A stretch of DNA of 64,000 bases from positions 64,001-128,000 of the IMG/VR virus record IMGVR_UViG_3300015606_001334; one strand, 5' to 3'. Positions within the stretch are counted from its first letter, which is position 1; each line of letters starts with the position of its first letter. A model generated the notes under the pieces. It was not told where the DNA came from. It saw only the letters and a program-made list of their open reading frames with translations, and did not search any database. Positions 4,127-36,815 of this stretch are shown here, piece by piece. This DNA comes from a virus (lineage: Duplodnaviria > Caudoviricetes). A program made the position numbers and the translations under genes.

Positions 4127-4189
4127 GATGGACTCCTTTAGTTTACCGATAAGACGATTGTATAACAGAAATCGAATTAAGTAAACTAT

Positions 4190-4378
4190 TTATTCAGAGT
4201 CTGGATCAAATGCCTTCTGAAGATCCCTCTTTTCTTGGTTTCTTCGATGCCTGTTGCGATCTTTCTTGATCGCTCGTTTAGCCTCTCTCACGAGAAACTT
4301 AACATTAGATGGGATCGGCCCATCAAGTTCGTCTAGCTTTTCTTGGAAGTAGACATCATCCTTATTCTTCGGTTTCAT
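4190..4378 (-). CDS. small basic hypothetical protein
   Basis: ORF on the dominant strand. Confidence 0.5.
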   Translation of the reverse strand: MKPKNKDDVYFQEKLDELDGPIPSNVKFLVREAKRAIKKDRNRHRRNQEKRDLQKAFDPDSE

Positions 4379-4746: not shown

Positions 4747-5108
4747 TAGTGGAGAACTCGACCTGCAGGAGCAGCGGTTTCTTCTTCACCAGTAAGAGCA
4801 GCAATGACTCCGCCTAAGGCGTTGGAAAGTTCTTGACGCTCCGCGACGAGGCGCTTTTCAACATCTTCCTTTGCGACGATGTCAACACGCTCCATATTAT
4901 GCGGTTCGCTAGTGAACTTCAAACCTTGAAAATCGGTTTCCTTGATGTCGAAGAACACCAAAGCAATCAGAGTATCGCCAAACTTTTCCTTCAGGAATTC
5001 GATACCCTTTTCACCGCGTGCAGGAACTTCAACAACATCAGCTTGGGTAAAGGGACCAACCAGAAGGGCGACTTCAGCGTAGGTACGGGTCTTCATCATG
5101 ATATGCAT
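4746..5108 (-). CDS. hypothetical protein
   Basis: AAGGAG SD, early promoter directly upstream. Confidence 0.65.
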   Translation of the reverse strand: MHIMMKTRTYAEVALLVGPFTQADVVEVPARGEKGIEFLKEKFGDTLIALVFFDIKETDFQGLKFTSEPHNMERVDIVAKEDVEKRLVAERQELSNALGGVIAALTGEEETAAPAGRVLH

Positions 5109-5467: not shown

Positions 5468-5542
5468 TGGAGACCGTAGAGGGAATCGAACCCTCGTTAT
5501 CGGATTTGCAATCCGGTGCACTAACCACTCTGCCATACGGTC
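5468..5542 (-). tRNA. tRNA-Cys(GCA)
   Basis: cloverleaf, loop TTGCAAA, GGTTCGATT, T-CCA end. Confidence 0.9.
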
Positions 5543-5597
5543 TGGCGTTCTTATTTAGAATCAACCAAATAGGAACAAAATTTATTGGATAGCTTTA

Positions 5598-5709
5598 TGA
5601 AGCTAATACGGTGCTTGAATCCGCGGTAACCCTACTCTTCCTGGGCCTTCATGACATCTGCCGGCTAGCATGTCACTCTTATCGGTTATCCAGTGTAGTT
5701 ACTATTAGC
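5598..5709 (-). ncRNA. tRNA-like structured RNA (7-bp terminal stem, long irregular arm, T-arm-like hairpin)
   Basis: GCTAATA/TATTAGC, GTAAC/GTTAC, CTGG/CCAG, TGACAT/ATGTCA, CGG-ATTCAAGCA-CCG, 3' TTCA. Confidence 0.55.
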
Positions 5710-5710
5710 T

Positions 5711-5784
5711 TGGCAAGGGTGGAAGGTAATGCTCCTTCTTCCTCTGGTTCAAAGCCAGATACTTTACTTTTAAGCTACACCCCA
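5711..5784 (-). tRNA. tRNA-Gln(TTG), atypical T and D loops
   Basis: TCTGG-CTTTGAA-CCAGA; T-loop AGCATTA; G-CCA end. Confidence 0.75.
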
Positions 5785-5790
5785 ATTGTT

Positions 5791-5974
5791 CGCGGAGTTT
5801 TTGCAATCCTCATAGTTCGATAAGCTCAGAGGAAGACTGTAAATTCGTAAACCCAAACTCCCTAAGGCTTGTCGATCAATCATTCCGGCTTATCGTCCAG
5901 AACAAAGGACCTATACGAATATTCGACGGAATTATTTTTCGGTTCAATGCGCATTGACCGAGTTTGGTTCCGCC
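5791..5974 (-). ncRNA. ~185-nt pseudoknotted RNA between tRNA-Pro and tRNA-Gln (manA-motif-like candidate)
   Basis: GCGGA/TCCGC closing stem, CCAAACTC/GAGTTTGG, GTCGA/TCGAC, crossing helices ATTCGTA/TACGAAT and GATAAGC/GCTTATC. Confidence 0.6.
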
Positions 5975-6051
5975 TGGTCTCGCTGGTAGGATTCGAACCT
6001 ACGAAATCCTGTTCCCAAAACAGGTGGTATAGACCACTAACCGACAGCGAG
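5975..6051 (-). tRNA. tRNA-Pro(TGG)
   Basis: CCTGT-TTTGGGA-ACAGG, GGTTCGAAT, A-CCA. Confidence 0.9.
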
Positions 6052-6086
6052 ATATTTTGCCATCTTTCGACAGCAAATTGTAAAAC

Positions 6087-6383
6087 TTAGCCTTCGAGAC
6101 CTAGCTCGTCGACATAAACTTCATCATTTTCTTTGTGGAAGATCTGATGAGTGTTGCGCTGATCATTGAGAATTGTTTCTCCTCTTCCACTCATTTCGAT
6201 CGAAATCACTTCACCAGTAAATTCGATGATTTCAGCAAATTGAGAAGCGTTTTCAACGTACTCGTATGCTTGCTTTGGATCATTGAAAACACGGTAAGTT
6301 GGACCATCGCCATCGTTGTTGATGCCAAGATAACGCTTACCAGCTGATTCGCTGATCTTGATCATTTCTTGTAGAAATTTCAT
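6087..6383 (-). CDS. late hypothetical protein inside tRNA array, probable internal head protein
   Basis: true start MKFLQEMIKISE at 6383 (the track's start lies inside tRNA-Arg); TATAAATA at 6406-6413. Confidence 0.6.
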   Translation of the reverse strand: MKFLQEMIKISESAGKRYLGINNDGDGPTYRVFNDPKQAYEYVENASQFAEIIEFTGEVISIEMSGRGETILNDQRNTHQIFHKENDEVYVDELGLEG

Positions 6384-6405
6384 TTTGGAACCTTTCAGAA
6401 AAAGG

Positions 6406-6413
6406 TATTTATA
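6406..6413 (-). promoter_or_regulatory. T4-type late promoter TATAAATA (representative)
   Basis: exact TATAAATA also at 7044-7051, 32370-32377, 55919-55926, 57306-57313; NATAAATA variants at 13014-13021, 53129-53136 and 45054-45061 (+). Confidence 0.7.
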
Positions 6414-6415
6414 TT

Positions 6416-6493
6416 TGGCGCCCTCGGAGAGATTCGAACTCCCGACTTCTTGTTTCGAAGACAAGCACTCTAGTCCAACTGAGTTACGAAGGC
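6416..6493 (-). tRNA. tRNA-Arg(TCG)
   Basis: CTTGT-CTTCGAA-ACAAG, AGTTCGAAT, G-CCA. Confidence 0.9.
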
Positions 6494-7014
6494 ATGTTTA
6501 ATATTTCATCAGTCATATGTCGCGAGATAAATCTTTTGACTTGAGTATGACTAATTCCTAATTCTTTACTACATCGAGTAACCCAACCCCAGCCAGTAGC
6601 AGAGTGCCTTCTTACTGCATCCTTATAGGAGTTTAGTTTCTCTTTTGAATATTGTCTACCAGCAGATGGTTTGCCCTTTCTTCTAGAAGCTATCATCTCC
6701 TTTGCCTTCTCTTCACCGTATTTCATTTTCATACGGTCGTTGAATGACAAGTACGTTCCAGCTTCTTTTTGATCGAGGTGATTATCTGTTGGAGTTCCCC
6801 AATACAAATGATTGGGGTTACTGCACTTTTCATTATTGCATGCATGACACAAATAAATTTTTGATCCTCTAGGGATTGTTGTATCTAAGAAATCAGCTAG
6901 TAATCCCCTGAATTCTTTTGAGTAACCTCCTCGTTCGATACAATTTTCTTCTAGACTGAGATGGGAACGTCTTTCTTCTCTACTTAGATTGATGTACTCA
7001 TTTATGTCTTGCAT
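6484..7014 (-). mobile_element. free-standing HNH homing endonuclease in tRNA array
   Basis: LCHACNNEKCSNPNHLYWGTPTDN HNH motif, C-terminal HTH-like segment, late promoter; stop codon lies in the tRNA-Arg 5' end. Confidence 0.75.
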
Positions 7015-7061
7015 TTTGAACCTTTAACTAAGAATGTATTTCCTATTTATAGGTTCAGATT

Positions 7062-7139
7062 TGGCACCGCTAGGGGGACTTGAACCCCACCCCTCGAGAG
7101 TGACAGTCTCGCATGCTCAACCATTAACACTATAGCGGT
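7062..7139 (-). tRNA. tRNA-Asp(GTC)
   Basis: CGAGA-CTGTCAC-TCTCG, GGTTCAAGT, G-CCA. Confidence 0.9.
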
Positions 7140-7229
7140 GTAGAGGAACGTTTTAGGCCTTTCAAACGTTCAGAGAATATTTAGCCGGACCTGACTTGCA
7201 GGTAAACCTTCCCTTGACTGATTTCAGGC

Positions 7230-7550
7230 TCAGTGAACCTTAATTTTCGGCAAGGCCGCAATAAGCGCCTTTTTCAAATTCTTGTATTTCGGCTTATCAG
7301 ACATGAGTTGAATCACTTCGTCAAGATCAACACCGTGTTCTGATAGATGTTTTCTGAAATTGCTACGACGATTGTACTCACTAGCCTGTTTTACACAAGC
7401 ATAGCATTGAGTGCGGTTCTTAAGACGAACTGCGCCACAAGTAATGCATAGATCCTGTGCTTTCCGGAAAGCACGAAGTTTACGATTGCTTACTGCTTGC
7501 GGAGTATCGGAGTTTTTGCCTTCTGAACGAAGATCTTGAGTTTCAGCCAT
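7230..7550 (-). CDS. zinc-finger protein
   Basis: CITCG...CYAC; own early promoter at 7579-7608. Confidence 0.6.
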   Translation of the reverse strand: MAETQDLRSEGKNSDTPQAVSNRKLRAFRKAQDLCITCGAVRLKNRTQCYACVKQASEYNRRSNFRKHLSEHGVDLDEVIQLMSDKPKYKNLKKALIAALPKIKVH

Positions 7551-7613
7551 TTTGTTCTTCTCGCTTTGAAAAAGTTAAATTATAACTTCAAAACGAGAAG
7601 ATGTAAACTGTTT

Positions 7614-8015
7614 TTATATCTTGAAATACTGGAATTCTACATAAGACTCAATTTCAGGAGGTTCCTTCAACATGATTTGAGTCTCAGTGATTTCAACATA
7701 AGCTTGTCTTGGTAGTTTTCGTCCATTGACAAAAACGAGGACTGAGTCAGTATGCATCACGTATGGAACATCAAGAGTAAACATCTGTTTGTCTTTGACA
7801 TCAATGTAAAATTCTTGACAGATCATTTTCCAAGCTGGCAGATCACCTAATGCTTTGTTCCAAATACCGTTTGCTTGAATGTAAAGTCCCTTCTTAACAG
7901 GATCCTTGCAATAAATGATTTGACCTTCTTCGAAGATGCCGTACTCAGGAACTTCATCATAGACTGGAATCTTAACCAGGTTTCTGATGACCTCTTCATT
8001 CGCATAAACTCTCAT
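7614..8015 (-). CDS. hypothetical protein, possibly virion-associated beta-sandwich module
   Basis: FTL..PY....SVLVFVNG..L....Y.E pattern seen in phage baseplate/tail proteins; AATAAATA upstream. Confidence 0.45.
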   Translation of the reverse strand: MRVYANEEVIRNLVKIPVYDEVPEYGIFEEGQIIYCKDPVKKGLYIQANGIWNKALGDLPAWKMICQEFYIDVKDKQMFTLDVPYVMHTDSVLVFVNGRKLPRQAYVEITETQIMLKEPPEIESYVEFQYFKI

Positions 8016-8055
8016 TTGTTTCTTCCTTATAGTTATGGATGAGATATTTATTGAT

Positions 8056-8129
8056 TGGCAGAGCGTGAGGGAATCGAACCCCCATCTGCGGACTTGGAAA
8101 CCGTTATGTTACCACTACACCAACGCTCT
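8056..8129 (-). tRNA. tRNA-Trp(CCA) with weakened anticodon stem
   Basis: ACGGT-TTCCAAG-TCCGC (A27:C43 and U31:U39 unpaired), U11-A24, G73-CCA. Confidence 0.75.
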
Positions 8130-8135
8130 ATATTT

Positions 8136-8210
8136 TGGTACTCCATACGGGATTTGAACCCGTCCGCCTACCTTGAAAGGGTAGTGACCTAACCGCTAGT
8201 CTAATGGAGT
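8136..8210 (-). tRNA. tRNA-Glu(TTC)
   Basis: CTACC-CTTTCAA-GGTAG, GGTTCAAAT, A-CCA. Confidence 0.9.
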
Positions 8211-8213
8211 ATA

Positions 8214-8285
8214 TGGCCCGCGGAAGAGGAGTCGAACCTCCAAGGCCAAGATTCGTAGTCTTAGCTCCATCCATTTGGCCCGCGG
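8214..8285 (-). tRNA. tRNA-Arg(ACG), reduced D arm
   Basis: TAAGA-CTACGAA-TCTTG, GGTTCGACT, G-CCA. Confidence 0.75.
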
Positions 8286-8293
8286 ATTTTTGT

Positions 8294-8371
8294 TGGGGCG
8301 ATCGACGGGACTTGAACCCGCAAGTACCTGATTCACAGTCAGGTGTGTCTACCAATTCCACCACGATCGCC
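8294..8371 (-). tRNA. tRNA-His(GTG) with encoded G-1
   Basis: CCTGA-CTGTGAA-TCAGG, G-1:C73, CCA. Confidence 0.9.
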
Positions 8372-8388
8372 ATAGTGAAAAATAAATC

Positions 8389-8475
8389 TGGCTAGGGAGG
8401 AAGGAGTCGAACCTTCACAAAGGCTTGCGCCGACAGAGTCAAAGTCTGTTGCTCTACCAGTTAAGCTACTCCCCA
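8389..8475 (-). tRNA. tRNA-Gln(TTG) with long variable arm
   Basis: ACAGA-CTTTGAC-TCTGT; V-arm GGC-GCAA-GCC; G-CCA. Confidence 0.85.
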
Positions 8476-8481
8476 ATTATT

Positions 8482-8585
8482 TGGCGGCGGATCAATTAAC
8501 CCAAACCTAGTCTAACCAACCGGCCGATTGGACTCGTCTATTGTGAGGGAAATTAGAAGAAGCTAGCATTCTAACTTAACCCGCC
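8482..8585 (-). ncRNA. CCA-terminated non-cloverleaf RNA
   Basis: GGCGGGTTAA/TTGATCCGCC terminal stem + G-CCA; internal hairpins TTAGAA/TTCTAA and CCAATCG/CGGTTGG; no T-loop or anticodon arm. Confidence 0.55.
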
Positions 8586-8660
8586 TGGTGCCAGCGATTG
8601 GTAACGATCCAACCTCTCAAGATTTTCAGTCTCGCGCTAATCCATCTCAGCTACACTGGC
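8586..8660 (-). tRNA. tRNA-Phe(GAA), atypical T-loop
   Basis: CGAGA-CTGAAAA-TCTTG; T-loop ATCGTTA; A-CCA. Confidence 0.85.
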
Positions 8661-8669
8661 ATTAAAATT

Positions 8670-8745
8670 TGGTGCACCCAGTCGGAATCGAACCGACGCT
8701 ACCATGCTCTTCAGGCATGTGCTCTACCAACTGAGCTACAGGTGC
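8670..8745 (-). tRNA. tRNA-Phe(GAA)
   Basis: CATGC-CTGAAGA-GCATG, GGTTCGATT, A-CCA. Confidence 0.9.
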
Positions 8746-8750
8746 ATATT

Positions 8751-8826
8751 TGGCACTGCGTACGGGTTTCGATCCCGTTGCCTCTACCGTGACAGGGTAG
8801 CGCTCTCCCAATTGAGCTAACGCAGT
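8751..8826 (-). tRNA. tRNA-Asp(GTC)
   Basis: CTACC-CTGTCAC-GGTAG; T-loop ATCGAAA; G-CCA. Confidence 0.88.
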
Positions 8827-8833
8827 ATTGATT

Positions 8834-8917
8834 TGGTACAGCGTGGGGGAATCGAACCCCAGCCCGAAGGCGGTACCTTGAAAGGGTACTGACCGTTACC
8901 AGCAGTCGACACGCTGT
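8834..8917 (-). tRNA. tRNA-Glu(TTC) with long variable arm
   Basis: GTACC-CTTTCAA-GGTAC; V-arm GCC-TTCG-GGC; A-CCA. Confidence 0.82.
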
Positions 8918-8934
8918 ATTAAAGATTGCTTAGG

Positions 8935-9009
8935 TCGGAGTGAGAGGATTTGAACCTCCGTCCTCCTCCTTCCAAGGGAGGCCGTCTACCAGGCTGACAT
9001 TACACTCCG
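8935..9009 (-). tRNA. tRNA-Pro(TGG), CCA not encoded
   Basis: CCTCC-CTTGGAA-GGAGG, GGTTCAAAT; ends A-CCT; flanked by a 12-bp inverted repeat. Confidence 0.82.
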
Positions 9010-9030
9010 CCTAAGCAATCTCTTTACTTC

Positions 9031-9438
9031 TTAAACTTCTTTGATTCTTCGAGCTAAGCTTCGATAACCATATCCAGCAGGGTGGATCTTGTCCTGGCTT
9101 AATTCTTGAACCTTTATCTCAATAGTCTTATCACCGTTTTTACTGGCGAGTTCCTCAACTATCTTTCTCTGTACAGGCTTGATACTCTTGCTTGGTAAAA
9201 TCCAAACAACCTGACCTGTAATGGAGCTTCTCAGCTTTTCTAGTGCTTCAAGAGTTTTGATCTGTTTGGTATCGTTTGTCCCAAGGCTGATAATCGTCAT
9301 TGGCAACTTCATGTTGAAGTCATGACGTTTAACGAAATCCTCAGAATTTATACCAGACTTTGCGTTTGCTTTGCATTCATGCATTACATTCGAAAGACCA
9401 TAAGCAATTGAGTCACCAATAATTAAACATTCAAGCAT
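9031..9438 (-). CDS. SGNH/GDSL hydrolase-like protein
   Basis: IIGDSIA, SLGTND, DKIHP blocks. Confidence 0.75.
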   Translation of the reverse strand: MLECLIIGDSIAYGLSNVMHECKANAKSGINSEDFVKRHDFNMKLPMTIISLGTNDTKQIKTLEALEKLRSSITGQVVWILPSKSIKPVQRKIVEELASKNGDKTIEIKVQELSQDKIHPAGYGYRSLARRIKEV

Positions 9439-9461
9439 ATTTTCCTTTTCAGTTTAAGTAA

Positions 9462-9536
9462 TGGTGGTGATGGCGGGAGTCGAACCCACTTGGTACTCCT
9501 TATGAGGGAGGCGCATAACCGTTCTGCCACATCACC
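9462..9536 (-). tRNA. tRNA-Met(CAT) (Ile2 not excluded)
   Basis: CCTCC-CTCATAA-GGAGT, GGTTCGACT, A-CCA. Confidence 0.85.
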
Positions 9537-9550
9537 AAAAGCTATCCAAT

Positions 9551-9563
9551 TTGTTAAAGAGCG
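9551..9563 (-). promoter_or_regulatory. boxA antitermination site
   Basis: CGCTCTTTAACAA versus rrn boxA TGCTCTTTAACA, 15 nt before the first tRNA. Confidence 0.8.
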
Positions 9564-9586
9564 TACTACTAAAAATCTGTGTTACT

Positions 9587-9624
9587 AAAACAATTAAGGG
9601 AAACCAATTTCTTGATTTCCCTTA
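9587..9624 (-). terminator. conditional (attenuator) terminator
   Basis: TAAGGGAAATCAA-GAAA-TTGGTTTCCCTTA then ATTGTTTT. Confidence 0.75.
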
Positions 9625-9684
9625 GTATTTTTACTTCTTAGAGATTTGTTACTTAAGCGTAACCATCTCCTTCAATACTAAGGG
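9619..9684 (-). promoter_or_regulatory. antiterminator hairpin competing with the terminator
   Basis: CCCTTAGTATT (9674-9684) is perfectly complementary to AATACTAAGGG (9619-9629); inner GAGAT/ATCTC and GTTAC/GTAAC stems. Confidence 0.75.
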
Positions 9685-9796
9685 CCTTACAAGGTTCATC
9701 ATCATGCATAAACTCTGGGCGGCGATCGCACTGCTCAGTGCGCTGCCACTGGCAGAAATCCTGATCAAATTGTTGTGCGAAAGTTGCGAAGTTCAT
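9653..9796 (-). CDS. tRNA-array attenuator leader peptide, 47 aa (not in ORF track)
   Basis: MNFATFAQQFDQDFCQWQRTEQCDRRPEFMHDDEPCKALSIEGDGYA; AAGGA upstream; composition mirrors the downstream tRNAs. Confidence 0.8.
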   Translation of the reverse strand: MNFATFAQQFDQDFCQWQRTEQCDRRPEFMHDDEPCKALSIEGDGYA

Positions 9797-9895
9797 GATG
9801 TTGCTAAGTCCTTGTAAAAAGTTAATGTTGCATATTACTATATATTAGATTCGGCAGAATTTTTGTTTTTCTGCTGTTATCCAACCGTTAGATGA

Positions 9896-9924
9896 ATTAT
9901 ATCATTTCTACCGGATTTGTAAAC
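9896..9924 (-). promoter_or_regulatory. early promoter of leader/tRNA array
   Basis: GTTTACA-N16-TATAAT. Confidence 0.75.
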
Positions 9925-10523
9925 AGTTTTGTTGAAAAAAGTTGAAGCATCAGAGAGTTGAACCTGATCCAAAACACCGACTCCACTGGGTAGGCCGTAT
10001 GTTTGAAGTACCGTACTGCTTCAACATGTAGAGAATTATAAATCGTTTTTCTGAAGTTGTAAACTGTTTTCAATAATTTTTTAATGATGTTGTTGATACC
10101 ACCAAATGAAATCATCGATTTGCGCCCTGAAGATTTCCAAACATCCACCCAACCTGGAGGATATGGAAGCACAAATTCTCCTGCAGTGTATGCAGTCGTC
10201 ATCATTTCTAGAACTATGCTGGCTGCGTCAATTTTGGCAACGCTATGTTTGGTGTACAAATCCGACAGTTTATGTTCAAGTTTGAATTCTTTGCGCAACA
10301 GATTGGCAATAATTGTAGCACCAGCCCTGGCAAACATGTCATCGTCTGTCATTCCAAGATGGTAACCACGATGGGATGCCCAAGCCCTTCTAACTGAGCG
10401 AGTTCGCTCTAACAAACTCTGTGTTTCATCAGTCTTTTTATTGATGCGCTTTAAGGCTTTGTATTCTTTCGTGTTCTTGAACGCTGTCGAGATCAGAAGT
10501 TCTTGTGTGGTCAAAGTGCTCAT
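9897..10523 (-). CDS. hypothetical protein
   Basis: long ORF; probable start MSTLTT. Confidence 0.55.
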   Translation of the reverse strand: MSTLTTQELLISTAFKNTKEYKALKRINKKTDETQSLLERTRSVRRAWASHRGYHLGMTDDDMFARAGATIIANLLRKEFKLEHKLSDLYTKHSVAKIDAASIVLEMMTTAYTAGEFVLPYPPGWVDVWKSSGRKSMISFGGINNIIKKLLKTVYNFRKTIYNSLHVEAVRYFKHTAYPVESVFWIRFNSLMLQLFSTKLFTNPVEMI

Positions 10524-18970: not shown

Positions 18971-19200
18971 TATTTGACGAAGTACATGTAGATTAGACCT
19001 GGAATAATGATGGCAAATTGCGGTAGAAAGTTCATCATCAACGCCTTCTCTTTCCAACGATAGCCCACATAAACCCAACCGCTTGCACCAATCATTTGGA
19101 CAAGGCTATTCCAAGGTGTCATGCCTAGAACATGTAAAACCATTGCGCAAAGAATAGTGAAAGCTGATGCCCACTTGATGTACCAAACGTGGTCTCTCAT
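18970..19200 (-). CDS. small membrane protein
   Basis: three hydrophobic helices, KW....P.N...G..GW..VG..W pattern; ATGA coupling at 19200. Confidence 0.65.
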   Translation of the reverse strand: MRDHVWYIKWASAFTILCAMVLHVLGMTPWNSLVQMIGASGWVYVGYRWKEKALMMNFLPQFAIIIPGLIYMYFVK

Positions 19201-19793
19201 TTGATCACCGTCACTAGAACATCTTTCCATACGTTATCAACTTCTACCTCTTGACCGAAGTTTCTCTTTATCCATCCTTTAGTCAAGTAACTCCACTGAG
19301 CGTCATGACTGCAGGCAAAATCGAGAATGTGGTTATTCTGTTCACAGATCGCTGCGTGCATTTTCGCAGAGTTTTCATATGCTTGATAGTTTGGGTACGA
19401 GATCTGGAAGCCACCAGCTTCATGCCACCACGTGTATGAAGCCATGTCAGGTCTGTAGACAAGCATGATCCAATCTTCGTGGAAAACATCCTTAATGTCA
19501 TGAAGAACATAAGCCCATTCATGGCTCTTTACGATTTTCATTCCTTCTTGAGTTTTCCAAGCAGAATCGACGTAAGCTGCAGGATCTGGTCGATCAAAGA
19601 TGAAAGAATCAAATTCCATCCCTGTACCGAAATAAGCGCCTTTATGACCTGAATAAGAGGTGTGACGATACTCGCGATCTGGGGTACAATCAGAATTGTT
19701 TACTCCTTGCATTTTGGAAAGGAGTTGTGAAATTCCTGACCATCTAGATCCTGGTACACCAGTGAAAAACAATCGGTTTGGAAGTTTTGCCAT
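19197..19793 (-). CDS. sulfotransferase-fold-like protein
   Basis: FFTGVPGSRWSG loop, IVKSH, LVYR. Confidence 0.5.
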   Translation of the reverse strand: MAKLPNRLFFTGVPGSRWSGISQLLSKMQGVNNSDCTPDREYRHTSYSGHKGAYFGTGMEFDSFIFDRPDPAAYVDSAWKTQEGMKIVKSHEWAYVLHDIKDVFHEDWIMLVYRPDMASYTWWHEAGGFQISYPNYQAYENSAKMHAAICEQNNHILDFACSHDAQWSYLTKGWIKRNFGQEVEVDNVWKDVLVTVIK

Positions 19794-26226: not shown

Positions 26227-27389
26227 TATTCCAAGTTTCCTGCGTGGATGCGAAGAGTGTCAACTTCAACACCAACCCAAGGGATCGCGATACCCATGTA
26301 CTGACGGATAACGGCATCATCAGGAACATTCTTGTCAGTACGTGAATGCTGACGAGAAAGGATCTGATCCTTGGAAGCAGGGAACATGACAGCTTCAACA
26401 CGATAGCCGCGCTTCTTCGCTTCTACGACGAACTTAGTACGAGCCTTACGAGACGTGTTGGTGTTATCCACAACGATAGAATCGTAGTTCTTGATGTGCT
26501 TAATGAACTCAACATCAGCGTAATGACCAAACTCGCTACGATGACCGTCGCAGTAGGTCCAAGCCTTGTGGTACTCATCAGCAGGAGACTTCGCCTTCGC
26601 CATGATTTCAGGGGCCTTCTTCTTCGTGAGTTCGATACGAATATCATCGAAGGAGTAATGCTTGAAACCAGCCAGGGTCAAAGCGCCAACTGAAGAAGAC
26701 TTGCCAGAACCAGAAGCACCAACCAAGATCGACAAAGTCGGAGCGTTGTCTTCAACTTGACGAGGCGGGTTGACATTGGCAGAGTTCATCATTTCGACGA
26801 AAGACTCGGTCTTGGCACGCTTAGTTTCGGAATCATCCGAAATACGACCATAAGTATCGCCGAGCAAATGATAACCAAAGCCAATTGCCGACTTACCAAG
26901 GTTGAACTCCATCGCAGTACGAAGGTAGTCCATCTTCTTGTCGTTGCCCATGTAGTCGTAAGGCAGATGGTTTTCAATCATCCACATGACCTTGTAAGCT
27001 TCTTCGACAGACAGCCAGTCCTTGAACAACTTGTAGTTGGTCACATAGTAGTCTTCCCACAGACGGGCAGAATACTGCTCATGGCCGTGGAAGGCGTCGT
27101 AATGGCCACGTTCAGGCTTGAACTTCACAACCTTGCAAGGCGGCTTGCCGGTGTCGTGGAAAAGCAGGGACAGGTAGGTGATAACGTAAGTGTCATCATC
27201 AATCAAAAACTGACCATGGAATTCGCCAACACGCTTGTTGAATTCGTAGCAAACCATTTCAGTATGGATCGCAACGGATTCTTCACGGTGCCAAGGAGAA
27301 TCTTCCTTGGTCTTAGCCATGGCGGCCCACAGAGGAGAGGTCTTCTTGAAGTGTTCAACGAATGAGGTGAGTGCAAGAATTTTTTGCAT
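26226..27389 (-). CDS. HD-phosphoesterase/polynucleotide kinase fusion (RNA end-healing)
   Basis: WHRE..V..HT, LFHDTGK, FHGHE..SA; GASGSGKS, VDNTN, R...R. Confidence 0.85.
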   Translation of the reverse strand: MQKILALTSFVEHFKKTSPLWAAMAKTKEDSPWHREESVAIHTEMVCYEFNKRVGEFHGQFLIDDDTYVITYLSLLFHDTGKPPCKVVKFKPERGHYDAFHGHEQYSARLWEDYYVTNYKLFKDWLSVEEAYKVMWMIENHLPYDYMGNDKKMDYLRTAMEFNLGKSAIGFGYHLLGDTYGRISDDSETKRAKTESFVEMMNSANVNPPRQVEDNAPTLSILVGASGSGKSSSVGALTLAGFKHYSFDDIRIELTKKKAPEIMAKAKSPADEYHKAWTYCDGHRSEFGHYADVEFIKHIKNYDSIVVDNTNTSRKARTKFVVEAKKRGYRVEAVMFPASKDQILSRQHSRTDKNVPDDAVIRQYMGIAIPWVGVEVDTLRIHAGNLE

Positions 27390-27537
27390 CTTGTTATTCC
27401 TTAAAAGTTAGCGCAATTATATCATGTCTTCTTTTGCGCGTAAACGTTTTTGTTTTCGGTTGGAATAAACTCTGAATCCTGCAAAACATGAAATCAAGTT
27501 GACGATTGGCAAAATGACAAAGACAAAAATTGCTACA

Positions 27538-28101
27538 TCAGTATCCATGAGAGTTTATCCATTGCAAGGCCTTGAAATATCCTTGTCTGTTTGCTTTCAC
27601 ATCAGCTAAAGCGTGGTGTTGTTTTGGTGAAGGATTCCTCAAGAAATATTCAAGGAATCCTTCATTGTACTGCTTCTTTGCGGTCTCAAAGAACCATTTA
27701 TAATCGGGTGTTTGCAACTCTGCGGCTTTATCTACAATTTGCTTATTGAGATAGGTGTGAAGCATTACTGGAGAAGTTGCAATATTCCCAGGAAGATCTT
27801 CAAGAAGATCCACTATGAGTTTCCAATCACCAGAAAAATCTGGGCAAAGAGCATACTCATCACCCAACTCCTCAAGCCAGCAGAAAAATCTTGCAGAAGC
27901 TTCTGACCTTGCCATACCGAATTTATCCAAATCGATCAATGGCTCTACGACATTTCGCACGAATTCACTTGAAGCTTTTCGATTGTAATCATTTAGCTCG
28001 CAGTAGAATTCATGCTTACCATCTTCAGTGATAGCACCAACTGAAATTAGGTCGGAGCCAATAAAGTCGGTAAACTCAGTGTCGACAAAACAGAGTTTCA
28101 T
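27538..28101 (-). CDS. DEDDh 3'-5' exoribonuclease
   Basis: FVDTEFT, LISVG, HHALAD. Confidence 0.85.
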   Translation of the reverse strand: MKLCFVDTEFTDFIGSDLISVGAITEDGKHEFYCELNDYNRKASSEFVRNVVEPLIDLDKFGMARSEASARFFCWLEELGDEYALCPDFSGDWKLIVDLLEDLPGNIATSPVMLHTYLNKQIVDKAAELQTPDYKWFFETAKKQYNEGFLEYFLRNPSPKQHHALADVKANRQGYFKALQWINSHGY

Positions 28102-28553
28102 TATGCTCTTAGAATATTTAACCCACTAGCGTTGATCACATTGCCAACCATTGTCGAGTACATCTTGTCGATCAAATTGGTATTACCATTCCCGTCGATT
28201 TCTTGGCATCCGTCATTGTCACCATTGACAATCAAACAACTCCCGTTTGGTGTACATTGAATGATATACACAGATTGGGTTTTGATTGTGACCTTCTCAA
28301 GGTTCGGACAGAAATGACCAAGGCGTTGGAAGAGGATGCGTTGTTCGATGATGTTCGTCCAGTTTTCTGGGAACGAAAGGAAAACTTCCTTCACATCAGG
28401 ACGCATCTCCATTTTGTCGAAGATCGAACGGAGAATGTGAGTTCCCATGTGAAGCTCATACTCGAGACTTTCATCGCGCATATGAGGACGACGATAGACA
28501 TAGACCTTCAAGTCTACTTTACGACCAAGGCCGAATACTTCATTGCACGACAT
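28101..28553 (-). CDS. hypothetical protein
   Basis: 150-aa ORF. Confidence 0.6.
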   Translation of the reverse strand: MSCNEVFGLGRKVDLKVYVYRRPHMRDESLEYELHMGTHILRSIFDKMEMRPDVKEVFLSFPENWTNIIEQRILFQRLGHFCPNLEKVTIKTQSVYIIQCTPNGSCLIVNGDNDGCQEIDGNGNTNLIDKMYSTMVGNVINASGLNILRA

Positions 28554-28818
28554 TTTTCTTTCCTTTCAACGGAATTCCAGCATCACAAAGAGGGCAATCA
28601 TGAATAGGCTCAGCCATTCGCTTGGCTTCTTCCAACGAGGTAATCATTGGCCAACCATAGTTCTCAGTCGGAAGAAAGCGAATCTTTGCGTTAGGAGGAA
28701 CGTCCCAGAATTTCATTTTTGTCCCTTTGGTTTGTCCCAATTGAACAGGTCCTTCGTCCTCTTTGTGATGTTCCATGCGAATCTTCCGTTTAAATGTGAA
28801 TGATCGTGAGTAGCCCAT
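28540..28818 (-). CDS. hypothetical protein
   Basis: overlapping ORF chain; start uncertain. Confidence 0.45.
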   Translation of the reverse strand: MGYSRSFTFKRKIRMEHHKEDEGPVQLGQTKGTKMKFWDVPPNAKIRFLPTENYGWPMITSLEEAKRMAEPIHDCPLCDAGIPLKGKKNVVQ

Positions 28819-29008
28819 TGGCTTACTCGGAATTCGACGCCTTCGTATTTCTTACAGAGAACGCCTCGAATCGGACACAAAAATACCTCTCCATCAAGGT
28901 CATCGAGAAATTCTAGACAAACACCAACCCAAGCAATATCCTCTTCAGGGATAAACCCTCGAGCTATAAGACTATTAAACAAATCATTTGCTACTTTATT
29001 CGCATCCA

Positions 29009-29248
29009 TTATCGGATCATCAACCAAAAGATAGAAGAAATGGTGCAACCAGCGATGAAAAAGATGGTAGCAACAACAGCGTTAGTAACAAGCAGCTGCT
29101 TCTTCACAAATCCGTAGGCAAACTGATGGGCTTCATCTCGAGCCGCGGAAATGACTTTGTCCTTATGCTCATGAATCAGCGCGACTGGACTAAATCGCTT
29201 GGTCAACGTTCCTTTAAAAGCATCTGCAATCTTACCCATTTGTAACAC
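29009..29248 (-). CDS. small membrane protein
   Basis: C-terminal hydrophobic helix. Confidence 0.5.
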   Translation of the reverse strand: MLQMGKIADAFKGTLTKRFSPVALIHEHKDKVISAARDEAHQFAYGFVKKQLLVTNAVVATIFFIAGCTISSIFWLMIR

Positions 29249-29438
29249 CTTTGCTGTAAATTTCTTCTCCCAGTTTCGTCACTGAGAACATTTTGTTGCC
29301 GATAGATTGGATGAGCCCGCGTTGTTCCAATTTCTTGGCTCGAGTGAGCTCTTCTTGAAGAAAACGATACTTCGGTTCTTGACGAATGGTACAAATAATT
29401 GCCCACTCATCATTAGTCAAAGATTGGTCTTTAGGCAT
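29232..29438 (-). CDS. small winged-helix-like protein
   Basis: KLEQRGLI...VTKLG. Confidence 0.45.
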
Positions 29439-30567
29439 TTGCGACCTTCAGAAAGTTTTCGATTGCAGCCACACGCGCTGCGCGGATTTTTGCGGCGATT
29501 TCCTTACCATTCTTCATACCCGCCGAGAGCGTAGTGCAGTCAACGGACAAAGCAGCTTCTCCGGCCTGGCGAATATGCGACATGCAGCGGAAAGCCATGG
29601 CAGCGTCGAAGTGAGAAGTCAAAGACCAGATTAGAGCACCCATAACCAGGCCGAAAGCCTTAGAATTCCGGATGAGACCCGCATCTTCCAAGAACTCCAT
29701 GACCTTTTCAGCTGGAGCAGTATCGATCGTGAAGATGCGACCACTCAACGCCCTGTAAGTTTTATGTGCGACTTGGAAATCCTTCGGGAACTTCATGTTC
29801 TGCATCGTATCGTCAGACCATTGACCGAAGAACGAGAACACTGCGAACTTGGAGGTAACGTCGAGCGCTTCGAAGCCAGAGATAAACTTGTCACTGCACT
29901 TCGAGATCGTTTCGATGTGCTTGCCAATTTCCCAACCAAACAGTCGGTCCAAAGCACCAGTCACATGAAGCGCGAGGATACCGCCGATGGAGTTCTTCTT
30001 TTCCATCAACAGTTTTTCGATTTCTACCCAGATACGTTCGCGAGTCAGGTGGTCCAGTTCACCAGAATCCACCAGCTGTTTCATCAGATCGAAGGTGGTG
30101 TGGTGAATCTCAAAGCCGTAGCGGGCTTTGAACCGAGCAACGCGCAGTACGCGCAGTGGGTCTTCTGCAAAAGCTTCGCTTACATGACGAAGTACTCCGT
30201 TCTTCAGGTCTTCTTGACCACCAAAGGGATCGATGATTTCGCCAGTTTCAGGGTCCATTGCCATCGCATTGATGGTCAAATCTCGACGACGAAGATCGTC
30301 TTCGATCGTCAAATCTGGAGAGGTGTAAGCCTCGAAGCCGTTGTAACCTGCGCCAACTTTGCGTTCGATACGAGCCAGGGCGTATTCGTCGCCAGTTTCA
30401 GGATGAAGGAACACAGGAAAGTCGGCACCAACACGTTGGTAGCCTTGAGCAATCAGACTTTCAACATCCTCAGCAGTAGCACCGACGATGACGTAGTCCT
30501 TGTCCTTTGGAACAAGACCAAGCAGGGTATCGCGAACGGCGCCGCCAACCAGGTAAGTTTTCATCAT
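29431..30567 (-). CDS. cca: CCA-adding tRNA nucleotidyltransferase
   Basis: [12 protein letters not shown]...[47 protein letters not shown]. Confidence 0.95.
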
Positions 30568-30713
30568 TTGAAAAATACCTCATTTATGATCAAACCGACG
30601 ATGATGATCATAGACATTGCGATAGATCCAAACGCAACCATAATCCGGCGGCCATATTGTTGTGGGGTAAGAAGTTTCATCGTCAGTTCTCCATCGAGTA
30701 TGTGATAATTATA

Positions 30714-31013
30714 TCACGTTTCTTCGGTTTGTAAACTGTTCTTGATCTTCTCAAGATGGTAGATTTGACGTTCGTAAATAGCCGTCAACAATCCGGAAAC
30801 CATTTTGTGTAGGGTTTCAAGACCTTCAAGATCAGTCGTGATGGTGATCGGAGTTACCGACTTGTCAACACTATCGACATCAGGATCGTAATGAGGGTTG
30901 TCCAATTGCGAGAAACGGATCTGTGCCGTCGGTTCTGTCGTAATTCCTTTGACATGACCGGAAAGCAGCACATCTCCGAATCCCATTACTACGTTGGTAC
31001 CGATAATTGCCAT
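30714..31013 (-). CDS. hypothetical protein
   Basis: probable start MAIIG. Confidence 0.5.
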   Translation of the reverse strand: MAIIGTNVVMGFGDVLLSGHVKGITTEPTAQIRFSQLDNPHYDPDVDSVDKSVTPITITTDLEGLETLHKMVSGLLTAIYERQIYHLEKIKNSLQTEET

Positions 31014-31015
31014 GC

Positions 31016-31714
31016 TTATCCTTCCAATTTGTTTTCTTTTGGAGCTTGGAACATCCAATGCTCGGTTGTCGTTACATGATTTGCTCGAACATACTTTGCG
31101 ACCGAGGTGCCATAGTCGTCGTAATGAAACTCTCCAGCTAGCCGCATTACCATGCCTTCTTGTACGCCACCGAGTTTACCAACTCCAGTGTAGAGGTCAA
31201 GTAGTTTTACCGAAGTCCCGTCTGCTTGCAGGATCGTTCCATCCTTTTGATAAATGCCTCGTGCAAGCAGTGGCACTAGGCTTAATCCAAGCTCAGCACA
31301 TAGTATTTCCATATCATCCCAGCTGTAGCAAACATTCCTGCGATCCCAGATAGCAAAACACAGGAAATATGCGGGAAGCTTATGATAGGCAATCGAGTGT
31401 TGAGCCACCATGTTCTCACCACAGATACGATGGATGTCTGCAAACTGAGGTTGATCAAGCTTCCACTTCAGCTCTTGTTGAAGTGCCCGCATCCGATCAC
31501 GAGACCAATGTGCTTTGGAATCGACTGAACGAGCATGGGTCTTCGTACGAGTATGAGTGGTGTTTTCACCATCAGCCTTCTCGGTTATCACGACTTCCTT
31601 GCCAATGAAATGATCCAAAGACTTCAGGACCTTATCATCCGAGGTTACACCGGGTGATTCTGGCATATGGAAGGTTCTGGAGAACTTTACCAAATCGTCA
31701 TCGTTAAGATACAT
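31016..31714 (-). CDS. ATP-dependent RNA ligase (nucleotidyltransferase domain only)
   Basis: RTFH.P.S.G...DD, EKADGEN, CGEN, EGMV.R, KYVR. Confidence 0.85.
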   Translation of the reverse strand: MYLNDDDLVKFSRTFHMPESPGVTSDDKVLKSLDHFIGKEVVITEKADGENTTHTRTKTHARSVDSKAHWSRDRMRALQQELKWKLDQPQFADIHRICGENMVAQHSIAYHKLPAYFLCFAIWDRRNVCYSWDDMEILCAELGLSLVPLLARGIYQKDGTILQADGTSVKLLDLYTGVGKLGGVQEGMVMRLAGEFHYDDYGTSVAKYVRANHVTTTEHWMFQAPKENKLEG

Positions 31715-31830
31715 GATTCCACCTGCTCATCTAAAATTTTGAGCATTATAAATCACTTTTCTGATTACGTAAACGAGTTTCGTGCCCGTATTATATAGCG
31801 GCGCCCCTGTAACGGAACGGGGAGAAAATT

Positions 31831-32169
31831 TTAGGTAAGGACTTTGTCTTTGACGTCGTCGAATTGATGGAGGGGAATTATAAAGATATGCTTCACGATC
31901 GACTGAAGATCTTCTTGAGTTAGTCTTTGCTGAAGCATGATGACACGCATCGCTGCATTCAGAAGATTGGTGATCGCGTTTTTAGTATCTACGCGGTAGA
32001 AAATCCGATCACAGAAGTTGAACCCAAAATTGACAGTGAGTTCAAAATATAGAGCGGAAAAGAAGGACTTAGCCTTGTCTCCCGTATCCTGATCGTAGTT
32101 TAGTTGGAGAAAGACTGCAAAATAATCTTCTTTCTTACCACTTTTGTTTCGGACACTCAGACCTAGCAT
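31831..32169 (-). CDS. hypothetical protein
   Basis: 112-aa ORF. Confidence 0.5.
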   Translation of the reverse strand: MLGLSVRNKSGKKEDYFAVFLQLNYDQDTGDKAKSFFSALYFELTVNFGFNFCDRIFYRVDTKNAITNLLNAAMRVIMLQQRLTQEDLQSIVKHIFIIPLHQFDDVKDKVLT

Positions 32170-32337
32170 ACATTACCTTTAAATCCATTTGACAGCCACA
32201 CTCTCCACAAGTTCTCATCAACTTTTTAAATTGAGGACAACCTTGGCAAATTTGAATGCGAACCTTTTTAAGTTCCGCAGGAACGAACTCTGCAGTCATT
32301 AGAAGAGTTTCTTTGAGCGCTTCTTTTGCTGTGTACA
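32135..32337 (-). CDS. small Cys-rich late protein
   Basis: R..IC..C....C..CGC....K.....CP..KW; TATAAATA upstream; probable start MYTAK. Confidence 0.6.
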
Positions 32338-32430
32338 TTTTCGAAATGAAAAATGTTGTTTGATGACAGTATTTATAGGTGAATGGTAAAAGTGACCCCC
32401 CCCCCACAACTAAAGATATTCCGTATATCT

Positions 32431-32631
32431 TTAAAGAATTGAATCTAAATCAATAATTCCTCGATGGTTGAGGTATTCTAGTGCGATCATGTACTCTTCG
32501 TACTCTTTCTCTGTCATTTCACAAATGTACTTCTTTGAGTACCCAGAAAGAGTGAGTGCCTGATTCAGGTTTAGGAAATGAAATAACTTCTTGTAGAACT
32601 TCTTTGATTCTTGCTCGTATTCGGCGCTCAT
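32431..32631 (-). CDS. hypothetical protein
   Basis: 66-aa ORF. Confidence 0.5.
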   Translation of the reverse strand: MSAEYEQESKKFYKKLFHFLNLNQALTLSGYSKKYICEMTEKEYEEYMIALEYLNHRGIIDLDSIL

Positions 32632-32664
32632 GAAAATACCCCAGAAAATCTGAGGTATTTATCC

Positions 32665-33060
32665 TTAGTAACCGCCTTCACTGTAAACTACAATGTCGTC
32701 AGATTCGAAGTCAATTTCAGTGTTGCAAAGCATGGCTTCTATACCGCCATCCTCGTCAGAGGCATAACCACTGTATACCGTGAATCCTTCTTTCAGCAAC
32801 TTTGCTTGCTTGCAACCATTTTCAATAGCTTCTTCGATTGTGTCGTATCCCCAGTTGTAGAGAATTTCTTTTTCATCGTACTTGTTCGCGCGATTATACA
32901 TGACCTGAGCCATATCGACTGCGATACGATACATTGGGCTATCTTCAGGAACCCTAAACAAACTTACGAGGGTATCAACATCCAGTTTCTTGTCACCGCG
33001 AAGTGCAACGATGAACGAAGAGCTGGAACTGTTTGAAACAAAACCAGCTCTTACTTTCAT
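32665..33060 (-). CDS. MKxRxGFVSNSSSSSF-leader family protein
   Basis: N-terminus MKVRAGFVSNSSSSSF. Confidence 0.75.
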   Translation of the reverse strand: MKVRAGFVSNSSSSSFIVALRGDKKLDVDTLVSLFRVPEDSPMYRIAVDMAQVMYNRANKYDEKEILYNWGYDTIEEAIENGCKQAKLLKEGFTVYSGYASDEDGGIEAMLCNTEIDFESDDIVVYSEGGY

Positions 33061-33545
33061 GATATTGCCTTGCTGAAACTTTCGTAGTTGCCGAATTCTT
33101 TGCGAGCTTTCTCGATGACGAATTCACGAGTTGAACCATGTTCCTTGAGGATGTAGGTCAAGATGTCGGAATCGCTGAGAGCTTCAAGAGCACAAATTGG
33201 GCAGAGTTCTTCAGGCAACTCGTCGTAGCCCATATCAGACATGGTGCTGCTAGAGAAGTAGCGAAGATCTAGCTCCATCAATTCTTGAATTTGGTCTGCT
33301 TCTTCAGCTTCAAGGAAGTCTTGATCGTCGCACTTTGGATCGTCCTTGATCTTAGCGAGGATTGACTTAGCTTTTGCTTCAGTCATTGGGGTGATGTGTT
33401 CACGACAGAATTCGTGACCGTTTTCGCATTGCGCGAAATCCATGTCGTCATAGGATGCGTCGTACCCTGATTCGACATTACCGCAAACCTCACAGATAAA
33501 TGAGGATGAGGATGAGTTACTTACAAAACCTTTTCTAATTTTCAT
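33057..33545 (-). CDS. MKxRxGFVSNSSSSSF-leader family protein, Cys-rich
   Basis: MKIRKGFVSNSSSSSF, CEVC, C..GH.FC..H, CPIC. Confidence 0.75.
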   Translation of the reverse strand: MKIRKGFVSNSSSSSFICEVCGNVESGYDASYDDMDFAQCENGHEFCREHITPMTEAKAKSILAKIKDDPKCDDQDFLEAEEADQIQELMELDLRYFSSSTMSDMGYDELPEELCPICALEALSDSDILTYILKEHGSTREFVIEKARKEFGNYESFSKAIS

Positions 33546-33546
33546 T

Positions 33547-33801
33547 TTACTTCTCCAAACTTGATTGCCAAACTATTCCATAAACTTTTTGTTGTAAATC
33601 CAAAACGTCGGTGTAACTAACACTTTCACCCTCGATGCATGACGCCGCAAAGGATTGGACTGCATCATTTACTCCTTGTGCAGCCCTATCTTTTGCGCCG
33701 ATGATCTGTGCGAGATGGTTGATCAACTCAACATTTTGCTCTACGTTGTATTTAACGAATAGGGCTCGTAATTCACTACGGTAGAAACTGTTTTTGTCCA
33801 T
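33547..33801 (-). CDS. hypothetical protein
   Basis: coupled ORF. Confidence 0.55.
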   Translation of the reverse strand: MDKNSFYRSELRALFVKYNVEQNVELINHLAQIIGAKDRAAQGVNDAVQSFAASCIEGESVSYTDVLDLQQKVYGIVWQSSLEK

Positions 33802-34142
33802 CAGGCTTTCTTCTTTGGAACCAGCTTCAGAAGATCCGAACGACGAACAACAATTGTCTTTTCTGGAAGAGCGTCCAACTGGACCAACGCGGTTTCTTCA
33901 CGAACACCGCAGACCGTAGCCTTACAGAAGAAGCAGCCTTCAGCGTCGAGAAAGTCGATGTAATCACCCTTTTCAAGGTTTTTATCTTCAACATACTGTG
34001 GCTCAAGAGGGTTGCCGATCTGTTTAAAGAACCAAGAAAAATCTTGGGCCTCAGTCATCTTCTTAAGCATTTCCTGACCGGTCTTAGTTACCTGCTCAGC
34101 AACCTTAGGATCAAACATTTGGAAGGATGGAAATTTAAACAT
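33801..34142 (-). CDS. hypothetical protein
   Basis: probable start MFKFPS. Confidence 0.55.
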   Translation of the reverse strand: MFKFPSFQMFDPKVAEQVTKTGQEMLKKMTEAQDFSWFFKQIGNPLEPQYVEDKNLEKGDYIDFLDAEGCFFCKATVCGVREETALVQLDALPEKTIVVRRSDLLKLVPKKKA

Positions 34143-34143
34143 G

Positions 34144-34926: not shown

Positions 34927-34928
34927 AG

Positions 34929-35072
34929 TTAATTCCAAGAATGGCGGCCGCGAGAGTCGTTATCGTAACGGTAATAATCGTGCCGATGGTGGTGATGATG
35001 CCCATCGTCAATGATGATAGGCATACATCCAGAAAGGATCGCTAAAGCGAGAATAATAGGAATGATTCTCAT
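34929..35072 (-). CDS. small His-rich lipoprotein (not in ORF track)
   Basis: MRIIPIILALAILSGC lipobox, GHHHHHRH. Confidence 0.6.
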   Translation of the reverse strand: MRIIPIILALAILSGCMPIIIDDGHHHHHRHDYYRYDNDSRGRHSWN

Positions 35073-35713: not shown

Positions 35714-35857
35714 CTAAAGCTCTTATAGTTTTGATTAACGAAATCTCTTGCTTCTTTCCAAAGAGGGTAGTAAACAACTCTGCCTGAGCAGAAATCCATT
35801 TTTGTCCCCCATTGCTTTGGAAATTTGCAACCGTCCTTCTTTGTTTCTTTTATGAAC

Positions 35858-36786: not shown

Positions 36787-36815
36787 TTGTTTTTCTTTCT
36801 TCTGTTATTTGGTGA

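Follow-up and report, generated by a model that had tools for sequence, protein, structure and literature searches.

A candidate ribosome-coupled attenuator with a tRNA operon as its output in a giant phage

What might tell a phage when to transcribe its own tRNA genes? Phage tRNAs have been proposed to compensate for codon usage, to replace host tRNAs that decay and to provide an escape from anticodon nucleases, and the choice among these roles is an open question. The locus described here bears on it. It lies in a 64,000-nt stretch of DNA, called the window below, that comprises bases 64001-128000 of IMG/VR record IMGVR_UViG_3300015606_001334, a 359,550-bp phage genome with 43% G+C and 45 tRNA genes. 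On the minus strand of the window, a short open reading frame (ORF) and a terminator-like hairpin precede a large tRNA array. The sequence points to a ribosome-coupled (leader-peptide) transcription attenuator with the tRNA operon as its output, a reading to which we give a probability of roughly 80%. The original prediction for this DNA had placed a promoter, a 47-codon ORF, a terminator, a boxA site and then the tRNAs in that order on the minus strand, and all of these elements were found where it had put them (Table 1).

Leader ORFs that list the amino acids of their arrays

The leader ORF begins 100 nt 3' of the promoter and ends 117 nt 5' of the first tRNA. The array behind it runs Met, Pro, Glu, Asp, Phe, Phe, Gln, His, Glu, Trp, Asp, Arg, Pro, Gln, Cys and serves exactly ten amino acids (M, P, E, D, F, Q, H, R, W and C). 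ARAGORN reports 14 of these tRNAs in 9536-5468, and a second tRNA-Gln at about 5714-5784 was added by Rfam and a relaxed ARAGORN search. The ten amino acids named in the original prediction therefore stand, and its count of 16 tRNAs becomes 15. In codons 8-36 of the leader, termed the sensor window here, 28 of the 29 residues belong to this set of ten and all ten occur, just as had been claimed. The ten amino acids make up 36.5% of the residues in the phage's long ORFs (very roughly 40% had been estimated for ordinary protein), and the binomial probability of the match is ~1e-11 before correction for the choice of window. The leader includes Arg and Cys codons, whose tRNAs are found only in the distal part of the array.

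The phage carries a second leader. It was located by searching the whole record with the DNA of the first, whose 5' untranslated region (5' UTR) has its sole other copy there, and, outside the window, it immediately precedes the other large tRNA array of the phage. Its 36-aa peptide reads MSSISSILNISTTLANNAKSLLVSKSYGYRGGEFPV, and every one of the 31 residues in codons 2-32 is an amino acid of array 2, which encodes tRNAs for Ser, Lys, Ile, Asn, Tyr, Ala, Arg, Cys, Leu, Thr, Gly, Val and Pro. The match extends to the level of anticodons. Cognate codons are present for 19 of the 20 distinct array-2 anticodons; segments drawn at random from phage genes reach a mean of 11.9 of the 20 and a maximum of 18 in 20,000 trials. 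The two leaders are complementary to each other in composition, as indicated by a Fisher test on amino acids exclusive to one array, counted over whole ORFs with no window ([[24,14],[2,31]], P = 3.5e-7). A 10-bp hairpin follows the second leader with the same tail as in the first, ATTGTTTTA, a sequence that is present four times in the genome, two of them after leaders.

Relatives of the phage divide their tRNAs between arrays in other ways. The DNA polymerase, topoisomerase II and tail sheath of the phage are of the T4 type, and by DNA polymerase its closest cultured relative is Ralstonia phage RsoM2USA, followed by XacN1, Xoo-sp13 and Stenotrophomonas phages at 37% identity. Together with G002, a 358-kb IMG/VR genome, RsoM2USA forms a clade with the genome analyzed here (G000), and both are distant relatives, with a DNA polymerase identity of 49%. 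Both have two leaders, each made up over 21 to 32 residues of the amino acids of its own array (Table 1), and whole-ORF Fisher tests within these two genomes give 2.9e-8 and 3.3e-9. G002 and RsoM2USA split their tRNAs between arrays differently, and leader composition follows the split. For example, Asn, Lys, Ile, Thr and Val are grouped with the acidic and aromatic set in G002 and with the Ser/Leu set in G000, and the leaders differ likewise. Covariation of leader composition with array content in related jumbo phages had been put forward as a check, and the six leaders of the three genomes all match their own arrays.

These leaders were called by scans of amino-acid composition; detection based on hairpins was abandoned after it overlooked leaders with weak T-tracts. 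An unbiased scan of 14 regions from nine phages took in 615 ATG-initiated ORFs of 14-75 codons with a tRNA run at most 1.5 kb downstream. The first leader ranks second among them, and all six leaders fall within the top nine. Eight real ORFs lie below P = 1e-5 vs none in controls that used the complementary amino-acid set or random peptides. No leader was detected at the Thr/Gly tRNAs of G000 (genome 58427-58972, minus strand, outside the window) or at the Thr, Arg, Val, Thr, Met, Gly group of RsoM2USA (record about 75.1-77.1 kb), and in PBECO4 and Vibrio phage 2.275.O the scans upstream of tRNA runs yielded no convincing candidate.

Closer homologues of the first leader come from metagenome assemblies, in which five further leader peptides with 78-98% identity were found. 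Their DNA was fetched, and the comparisons below that refer to homologues cover these five and the first leader, six sequences in all. Variable sites number 8, 9 and 14 at codon positions 1, 2 and 3. Within codons 16-36, all changes are synonymous except T20P/H and R25H, both to amino acids of the array. The sole outlier of the sensor window, Thr20, is replaced by Pro in four of the homologues and by His in a fifth. CCT is also read at this codon in a contig from an RNA library that represents a close variant.

Other routes to homologues were unproductive. Searches of the phage collection with the leader DNA and protein returned no matches, and the ORF has no Pfam or PHROG match. Pattern scans of IMG/VR with AAAAACAAAAATTCTG and with TTTACAAGGACTT...ATG gave chance matches only; in the second, none of 119 loci had a short ORF followed by tRNAs. 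Close relatives were not recovered from IMG/VR using the proteins that neighbor the leader; the relatives used here were recovered via DNA polymerase. Near-identical DNA is present in wastewater metagenomes.

Competing hairpins and the proposed switch

The hairpin proper between the leader and the first tRNA spans 9624-9595 and is followed by a tail that reads ATTGTTTTAG. Its 5' arm has a second potential partner at the end of the ORF. As had been noticed, there is an 11/11 complement: CCCTTAGTATT (9684-9674), which falls within the leader, pairs exactly with AATACTAAGGG (9629-9619). When nascent transcripts were folded up to the terminator loop, one per leader, this helix was the minimum-energy pairing for the first leader, and in all six leaders the terminator 5' arm was paired with the 3' end of the ORF. 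Each of the six also has a hairpin with a T-rich tail downstream, at record positions of about 112.0 kb and 87.2 kb for the two RsoM2USA leaders. In a duplex test of the segment from -36 to +12 around the stop codon with the region of the 5' arm, the best duplex beat dinucleotide shuffles in six of six leaders (P 0.001-0.035, combined 9e-10; first leader P = 0.001). The pairing sequences differ among leaders, as in leader 2, where UUCCCAGUCUAAGUUAC pairs with the region of the terminator arm; thus, the complementarity has been maintained independently. The last residues of the ORFs, which are not array amino acids (ALSI here, EFPV in leader 2, and TLSE, RV and GVALVE in the others), are encoded by the pairing strands, which accounts for why the list stops before the ORF ends. 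The ORFs themselves fold strongly, with z = -3.6 for the first leader and -5.5 for leader 2.

The homologues diverge little, and the covariation that they offer is modest evidence. Across the six sequences, the antiterminator is paired in 66 of 66 cells. Three sequences have U-A as its outermost pair and the other three have C-G, and a single A-U is replaced by G-U. In the terminator the only difference is at the top A-U pair, both sides of which are missing from three sequences. Compensatory changes in both hairpins, another check put forward with the original prediction, are therefore present. After ALSI the peptide tails diverge (EGDGYA, GDKLPKA, PGGN and SEGTGSF). Each homologue keeps an extended stem-loop that consists of an outer helix and, within it, a two-tier hairpin whose sequence varies, and the inner hairpin carries the leader stop codon at or beside its apex in five of the six.

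These features suggest how the switch could work. Transcription would start at 9923-9896, and a ribosome would translate the 47-codon leader while polymerase makes the downstream hairpins. Codons 8-36 would serve as a checklist, with entries for all ten amino acids of the tRNAs in the array. With fast decoding, the ribosome would unwind the 5' half of the antiterminator stem-loop (9684-9619) and reach the stop codon at its apex; the terminator 5' arm would be left free, the 13-bp terminator would form and transcription would end before tRNA-Met. With slow decoding of any checklist codon, the ribosome would lag and the antiterminator would form first, sequestering part of the terminator 5' arm, so that polymerase would read through the boxA-like site into the array. 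That slow decoding should lead to read-through, and not the reverse, follows from the position of the antiterminator 5' strand. The outcome would be negative feedback in which phage tRNA is made on demand, and the second module would act likewise for the other array.

Several points weigh against this reading. That the ORF is translated and that transcription terminates at the hairpin are things that we infer from sequence, and so are the direction of the switch, read-through and the trigger. In three leaders the Shine-Dalgarno spacing is 12-13 nt, which is suboptimal. Other bases break up the U-tract (AUUGUUUU), and that of G002 is even weaker (UCGUUUAG). Under strict wobble rules, tRNA-Arg(UCG) of the array would not read the three Arg codons of the first leader (CGC). 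With the antiterminator 5' strand placed 19-29 nt 5' of the stop codon, a simple ribosome footprint of -15 to +12 would not reach it (in four of the five other leaders the strand is within this footprint), so blocking depends on a steric argument in which the ribosome sits at the apex of the stem-loop. In the predicted fold, the stop codon of the first leader lies at the apex of 9684-9619, and this offers the most plausible reason why a ribosome that reaches it would prevent the antiterminator. The full transcript at equilibrium folds into the terminator even without a ribosome; therefore, the switch must be kinetic. No pause hairpin or conserved anti-antiterminator (1:2) hairpin was identified in the leader folds. 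The attenuators are also not the sole input, given promoter-like sites inside the arrays. The original prediction had flagged one near 7579-7608, and TTTACA-17-TATAAT is found at 7607-7579, from which distal tRNAs could be expressed independently of the attenuator. Two further promoter-like sites lie in array 2, 3' of the leader-2 terminator.

A last point against the attenuator comes from XacN1, Xoo-sp13 and CM1. These phages have array-matched short ORFs that begin a few bases after a late-promoter-like word, CTAAATA. They have no T-tract terminator, and in the XacN1-type phages the downstream hairpin involves the 5' acceptor strand of the first tRNA. In XacN1, a 41-aa ORF stands before Phe, Asp, Ile, Ala, Val, His, Ser and Arg, and Lys/Tyr-rich mini-ORFs conserved between XacN1 and Xoo-sp13 stand before Lys, Lys and Tyr, with the peptides MNKPYYKRYYAKA and MNKLYYKRYYKKLP. 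Judged by their sequence, the ORFs of the three phages may work differently from the terminator-linked leaders.

The XacN1-type ORFs open the way to a different account, in which the ORFs are translated, array-matched sensors that act through precursor folding, RNase processing of the first tRNAs, transcript stability or access of Rho. The array-matched ORFs of XacN1 and Xoo-sp13 would fit this account well, with no T-tract and a hairpin that uses the acceptor strand of the first tRNA, as would the weak U-tracts of G002. We nevertheless consider it improbable. Six leaders keep a T-tailed hairpin and a mutually exclusive helix at the end of the ORF, with covariation, and this combination is the specific anatomy of termination control.

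An attenuator might instead sense general translation capacity or the stage of infection, by way of host shut-off, ribosome availability or amino-acid starvation, and its match to the array would then be a by-product. The mismatch between Arg codons and the Arg isoacceptor of the array, which is seen here and in XacN1, would be expected in that case, and the nascent fold without a ribosome predicts read-through; the late-promoter-like words in the 5' UTRs are compatible with it as well. What makes it very unlikely is that such a sensor would not need complementary amino-acid sets within one genome or codons for 19/20 and 22/25 anticodons, and that leaders differ where the tRNA partition differs between genomes. 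It is harder still to credit that the ORF is a small functional protein, or is untranslated, and matches its array by coincidence or compositional bias. The poor Shine-Dalgarno spacing and the missing Pfam and PHROG matches are in its favor. Against this stand the per-leader probabilities of 1e-5 to 1e-11 with empty controls, the complementarity of leaders within one genome and the conservation of RNA structure where the peptide tail is not conserved.

If ribosome-coupled attenuation is at work, possible triggers are a mismatch of codon usage with the host, decay of host tRNAs, anticodon nucleases and starvation. A more ambitious proposal is that the leaders are isoacceptor-resolved decoding sensors in a counter-defense circuit. 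Loss of tRNAs to host anticodon nucleases, or through infection-associated decay of host tRNAs, would then switch on only the array that replaces those lost. This proposal is tentative, and we regard it as possible but doubtful.

Promoters, the boxA-like site and the surroundings of the array

The promoter upstream of the leader fits the phage's own enriched early-promoter words, TGATATAA and TATAATTC, which were recognized as enriched upstream 8-mers. The 5'-UTR block that follows holds CTAATATATAG, which aligns in a homologue with CGTATAAATAG, a late-promoter word of the T4 type. The motif CTA(A/T)ATATAG within this block is common to both leaders and has a counterpart in a close homologue (L290, about 4930-5000); it also aligns with CGTATAAATA, which precedes all four leaders of G002 and RsoM2USA. 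The motif is probably a late promoter of the T4 type, placed in tandem with the early promoter. The Shine-Dalgarno-like region is shared in part, and TTTACAAGGACTT also precedes RsoM2USA leader ii. A pairing of this region (UUACAAGG) with codons 35-37 (CCUUGUAA) was considered and rejected, as it is lost in homologue L293.

Table 1. Positions and features of the leader region, the array behind it and leaders elsewhere (window positions unless another record is named; fractions are residues that match the array)
Feature	Position	Strand	Details
Sigma-70-type promoter	9896..9923	-	TTTACA-16-TATAAT with TG extension, 11/12 matches
5'-UTR block	9814..9871	-	87% identical to that of the second leader over 58 nt
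Shine-Dalgarno-like AAGGA	9809..9813	-	12 nt before ATG
Leader ORF	9653..9796	-	47 codons and TAA
Sensor window	9689..9775	-	Codons 8-36
Antiterminator 5' strand	9674..9684	-	CCCUUAGUAUU, codons 38-41
Antiterminator 3' strand	9619..9629	-	AAUACUAAGGG, overlaps first 6 nt of terminator 5' arm
Intrinsic-terminator-like hairpin and tail	9585..9624	-	13 bp, GAAA loop, -16.1 kcal/mol; tail AUUGUUUUAG
boxA-like site	9551..9563	-	CGCTCTTTAACAA, between attenuator and first tRNA
Long-range complement, 5' strand	9538..9550	-	13 nt, perfect, directly after boxA-like site
Long-range complement, 3' strand	5584..5596	-	Just past second tRNA-Gln
tRNA array	5468..9536	-	15 tRNAs, ARAGORN and Rfam
135-aa ORF	9031-9438	-	Between tRNA-Met and tRNA-Pro; weak DUF459 (SGNH-like) match
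Promoter-like site inside array	7579..7607	-	TTTACA-17-TATAAT
HNH endonuclease ORF	6484-7014	-	Inside tRNA array; PHROG matches
Second leader	genome 149680-149570	-	Upstream of array 2
Leader G002-A			MRTMFRNITMKNWQDKCQRTVVRFEREHDNTHV, then TLSEGSKEG; 32/32; 22/25 anticodons; array His, Thr, Glu, Lys, Asn, Ala, Val, Ile, Met, Gln, Asp, Arg, Cys, Trp, Phe
Leader G002-B			MLSLSTLSSLSYSPAVTLPGGIASAVGSTT, then RV; 29/29; all nine amino acids present; array Val, Tyr, Gly, Leu, Pro, Thr, Ile, Ser, Ala
Leader RsoM2USA-i			MT, SHWHSYSLPVSSLELYCLEVE, MT; 21/21; all nine amino acids present; array Pro, Cys, Glu, Tyr, Leu, Trp, Ser, His, Val
Leader RsoM2USA-ii			MFNAFNNNQRQNQAAMFDVRAIAFNAKNDIK, then GVALVE; 30/30; array Met, Ile, Asn, Gln, Lys, Arg, Phe, Ala, Val, Pro, Asp, Thr
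XacN1 41-aa ORF	L160 (record 27001-47000) 19104-19229		34/36
Mini-ORF, XacN1	L160 3428-3469		Lys/Tyr-rich
Mini-ORF, Xoo-sp13	L162 (record 30001-50000) 4178-4222		Lys/Tyr-rich

The boxA-like site agrees at 12 of 13 positions with the E. coli rrn boxA consensus TGCTCTTTAACAA. It is kept only in part across the homologues. A second 12/13 match (TGTTCTTTAACAA) is found inside array 2, at genome position 148114 on the minus strand, just before tRNA-Lys(UUU). Directly after the boxA-like site lies one strand of a 13-nt perfect long-range complement (9550-9538 with 5596-5584; 0.002 expected by chance), which encloses tRNA-Met through the second tRNA-Gln in the manner of the processing stems of rRNA precursors. 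The complement suggests a single precursor of ~4 kb that would run from the attenuator to at least 5596-5584. Between the terminator and tRNA-Met, the window sequence contains no promoter-like site.

Contigs from wastewater RNA libraries cover 9498-10028 at 95-100% identity, and one of them bridges the terminator into tRNA-Met. These contigs indicate presence only, as opposed to RNA ends or levels, and they may include DNA carry-over. Parts without coverage (the 135-aa ORF and the upstream genes) are not to be read as silent, and contig ends near 9869 are not to be taken as RNA ends.

The array is interspersed with small ORFs. The one that encodes 135 aa is kept in homologue L289, and it has just two weak, uninformative matches in the phage collection. 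Two of the tRNA genes are unusually long for their identity. The tRNA-Glu at 8834-8917 (minus strand) has 84 nt and its best Rfam match is to tRNA-Sec, below threshold, and the tRNA-Gln at 8389-8475 (minus strand) has 87 nt. Elsewhere in the window, at 55950-56023 on the minus strand, there is a tRNA with the anticodon CUA, of the amber-suppressor type. Similar CUA-anticodon tRNA genes are found in G002 (two), RsoM2USA, XacN1, Xoo-sp13 and CM1.

Relation to known attenuators

A leader that lists its array implies that the phage measures the speed of decoding at those codons and makes tRNA on demand. If this is true, classical attenuation would be extended to tRNA genes as an output, to 9-15 amino acids per leader and to viruses. 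Should the counter-defense proposal hold as well, several lineages of giant phages would run a modular, demand-driven tRNA supply, with the first tRNA genes controlled by attenuation in any organism. A practical gain is that tRNA operons of uncultured giant phages could be delimited by a rule based on sequence. The leader system is also present in a cultured phage, RsoM2USA, and is thus directly testable.

Attenuator-controlled tRNA genes are not described in the phage literature that was searched full-text, a coverage that subscription journals fall outside. The genome papers on RsoM2USA and XacN1 mention none (PMC8504454, PMC5852040). Between 4500 and 11000 of the window, there is no Rfam match at E <= 1 to Trp_leader, His_leader, Leu_leader, Thr_leader or T-box.

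The amino-acid operons of enterobacteria are controlled by leader-peptide attenuators that include the ilvGMEDA leader (Ile, Leu and Val), thrL (Thr and Ile), trpL, hisL, pheL and leuL. The phage leaders resemble these in having a short ORF rich in regulatory codons, an intrinsic terminator, an exclusive antiterminator and a read-out that would depend on ribosome position. They differ in that the output is a set of tRNA genes rather than biosynthetic enzymes. Enterobacterial leaders have runs of one to three amino acids, while the phage leaders list 9-15, mostly once to a few times each. The architecture also differs, with the leader stop codon inside or at the apex of the antiterminator and no counterpart found of the enterobacterial 1:2 hairpin.

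Regulation of the translation apparatus by the state of the cognate tRNA pool has parallels in pheST (pheM) attenuation and in the T-box. However, a T-box RNA recognizes uncharged tRNA by direct binding, independently of a ribosome, and the pheM leader responds to a single amino acid and governs a synthetase rather than tRNA genes. There is also a likeness to the antitermination of rrn operons, in that a boxA-like CGCTCTTTAACAA follows the attenuator and a long-range stem surrounds the array as in rRNA precursors, although here the boxA-like site is a candidate accessory element and not the sensor. Mechanisms of this kind have long been known; the phage system is new in its output of tRNA genes, in its breadth of 9-15 amino acids, often resolved to isoacceptors, and in its viral setting.

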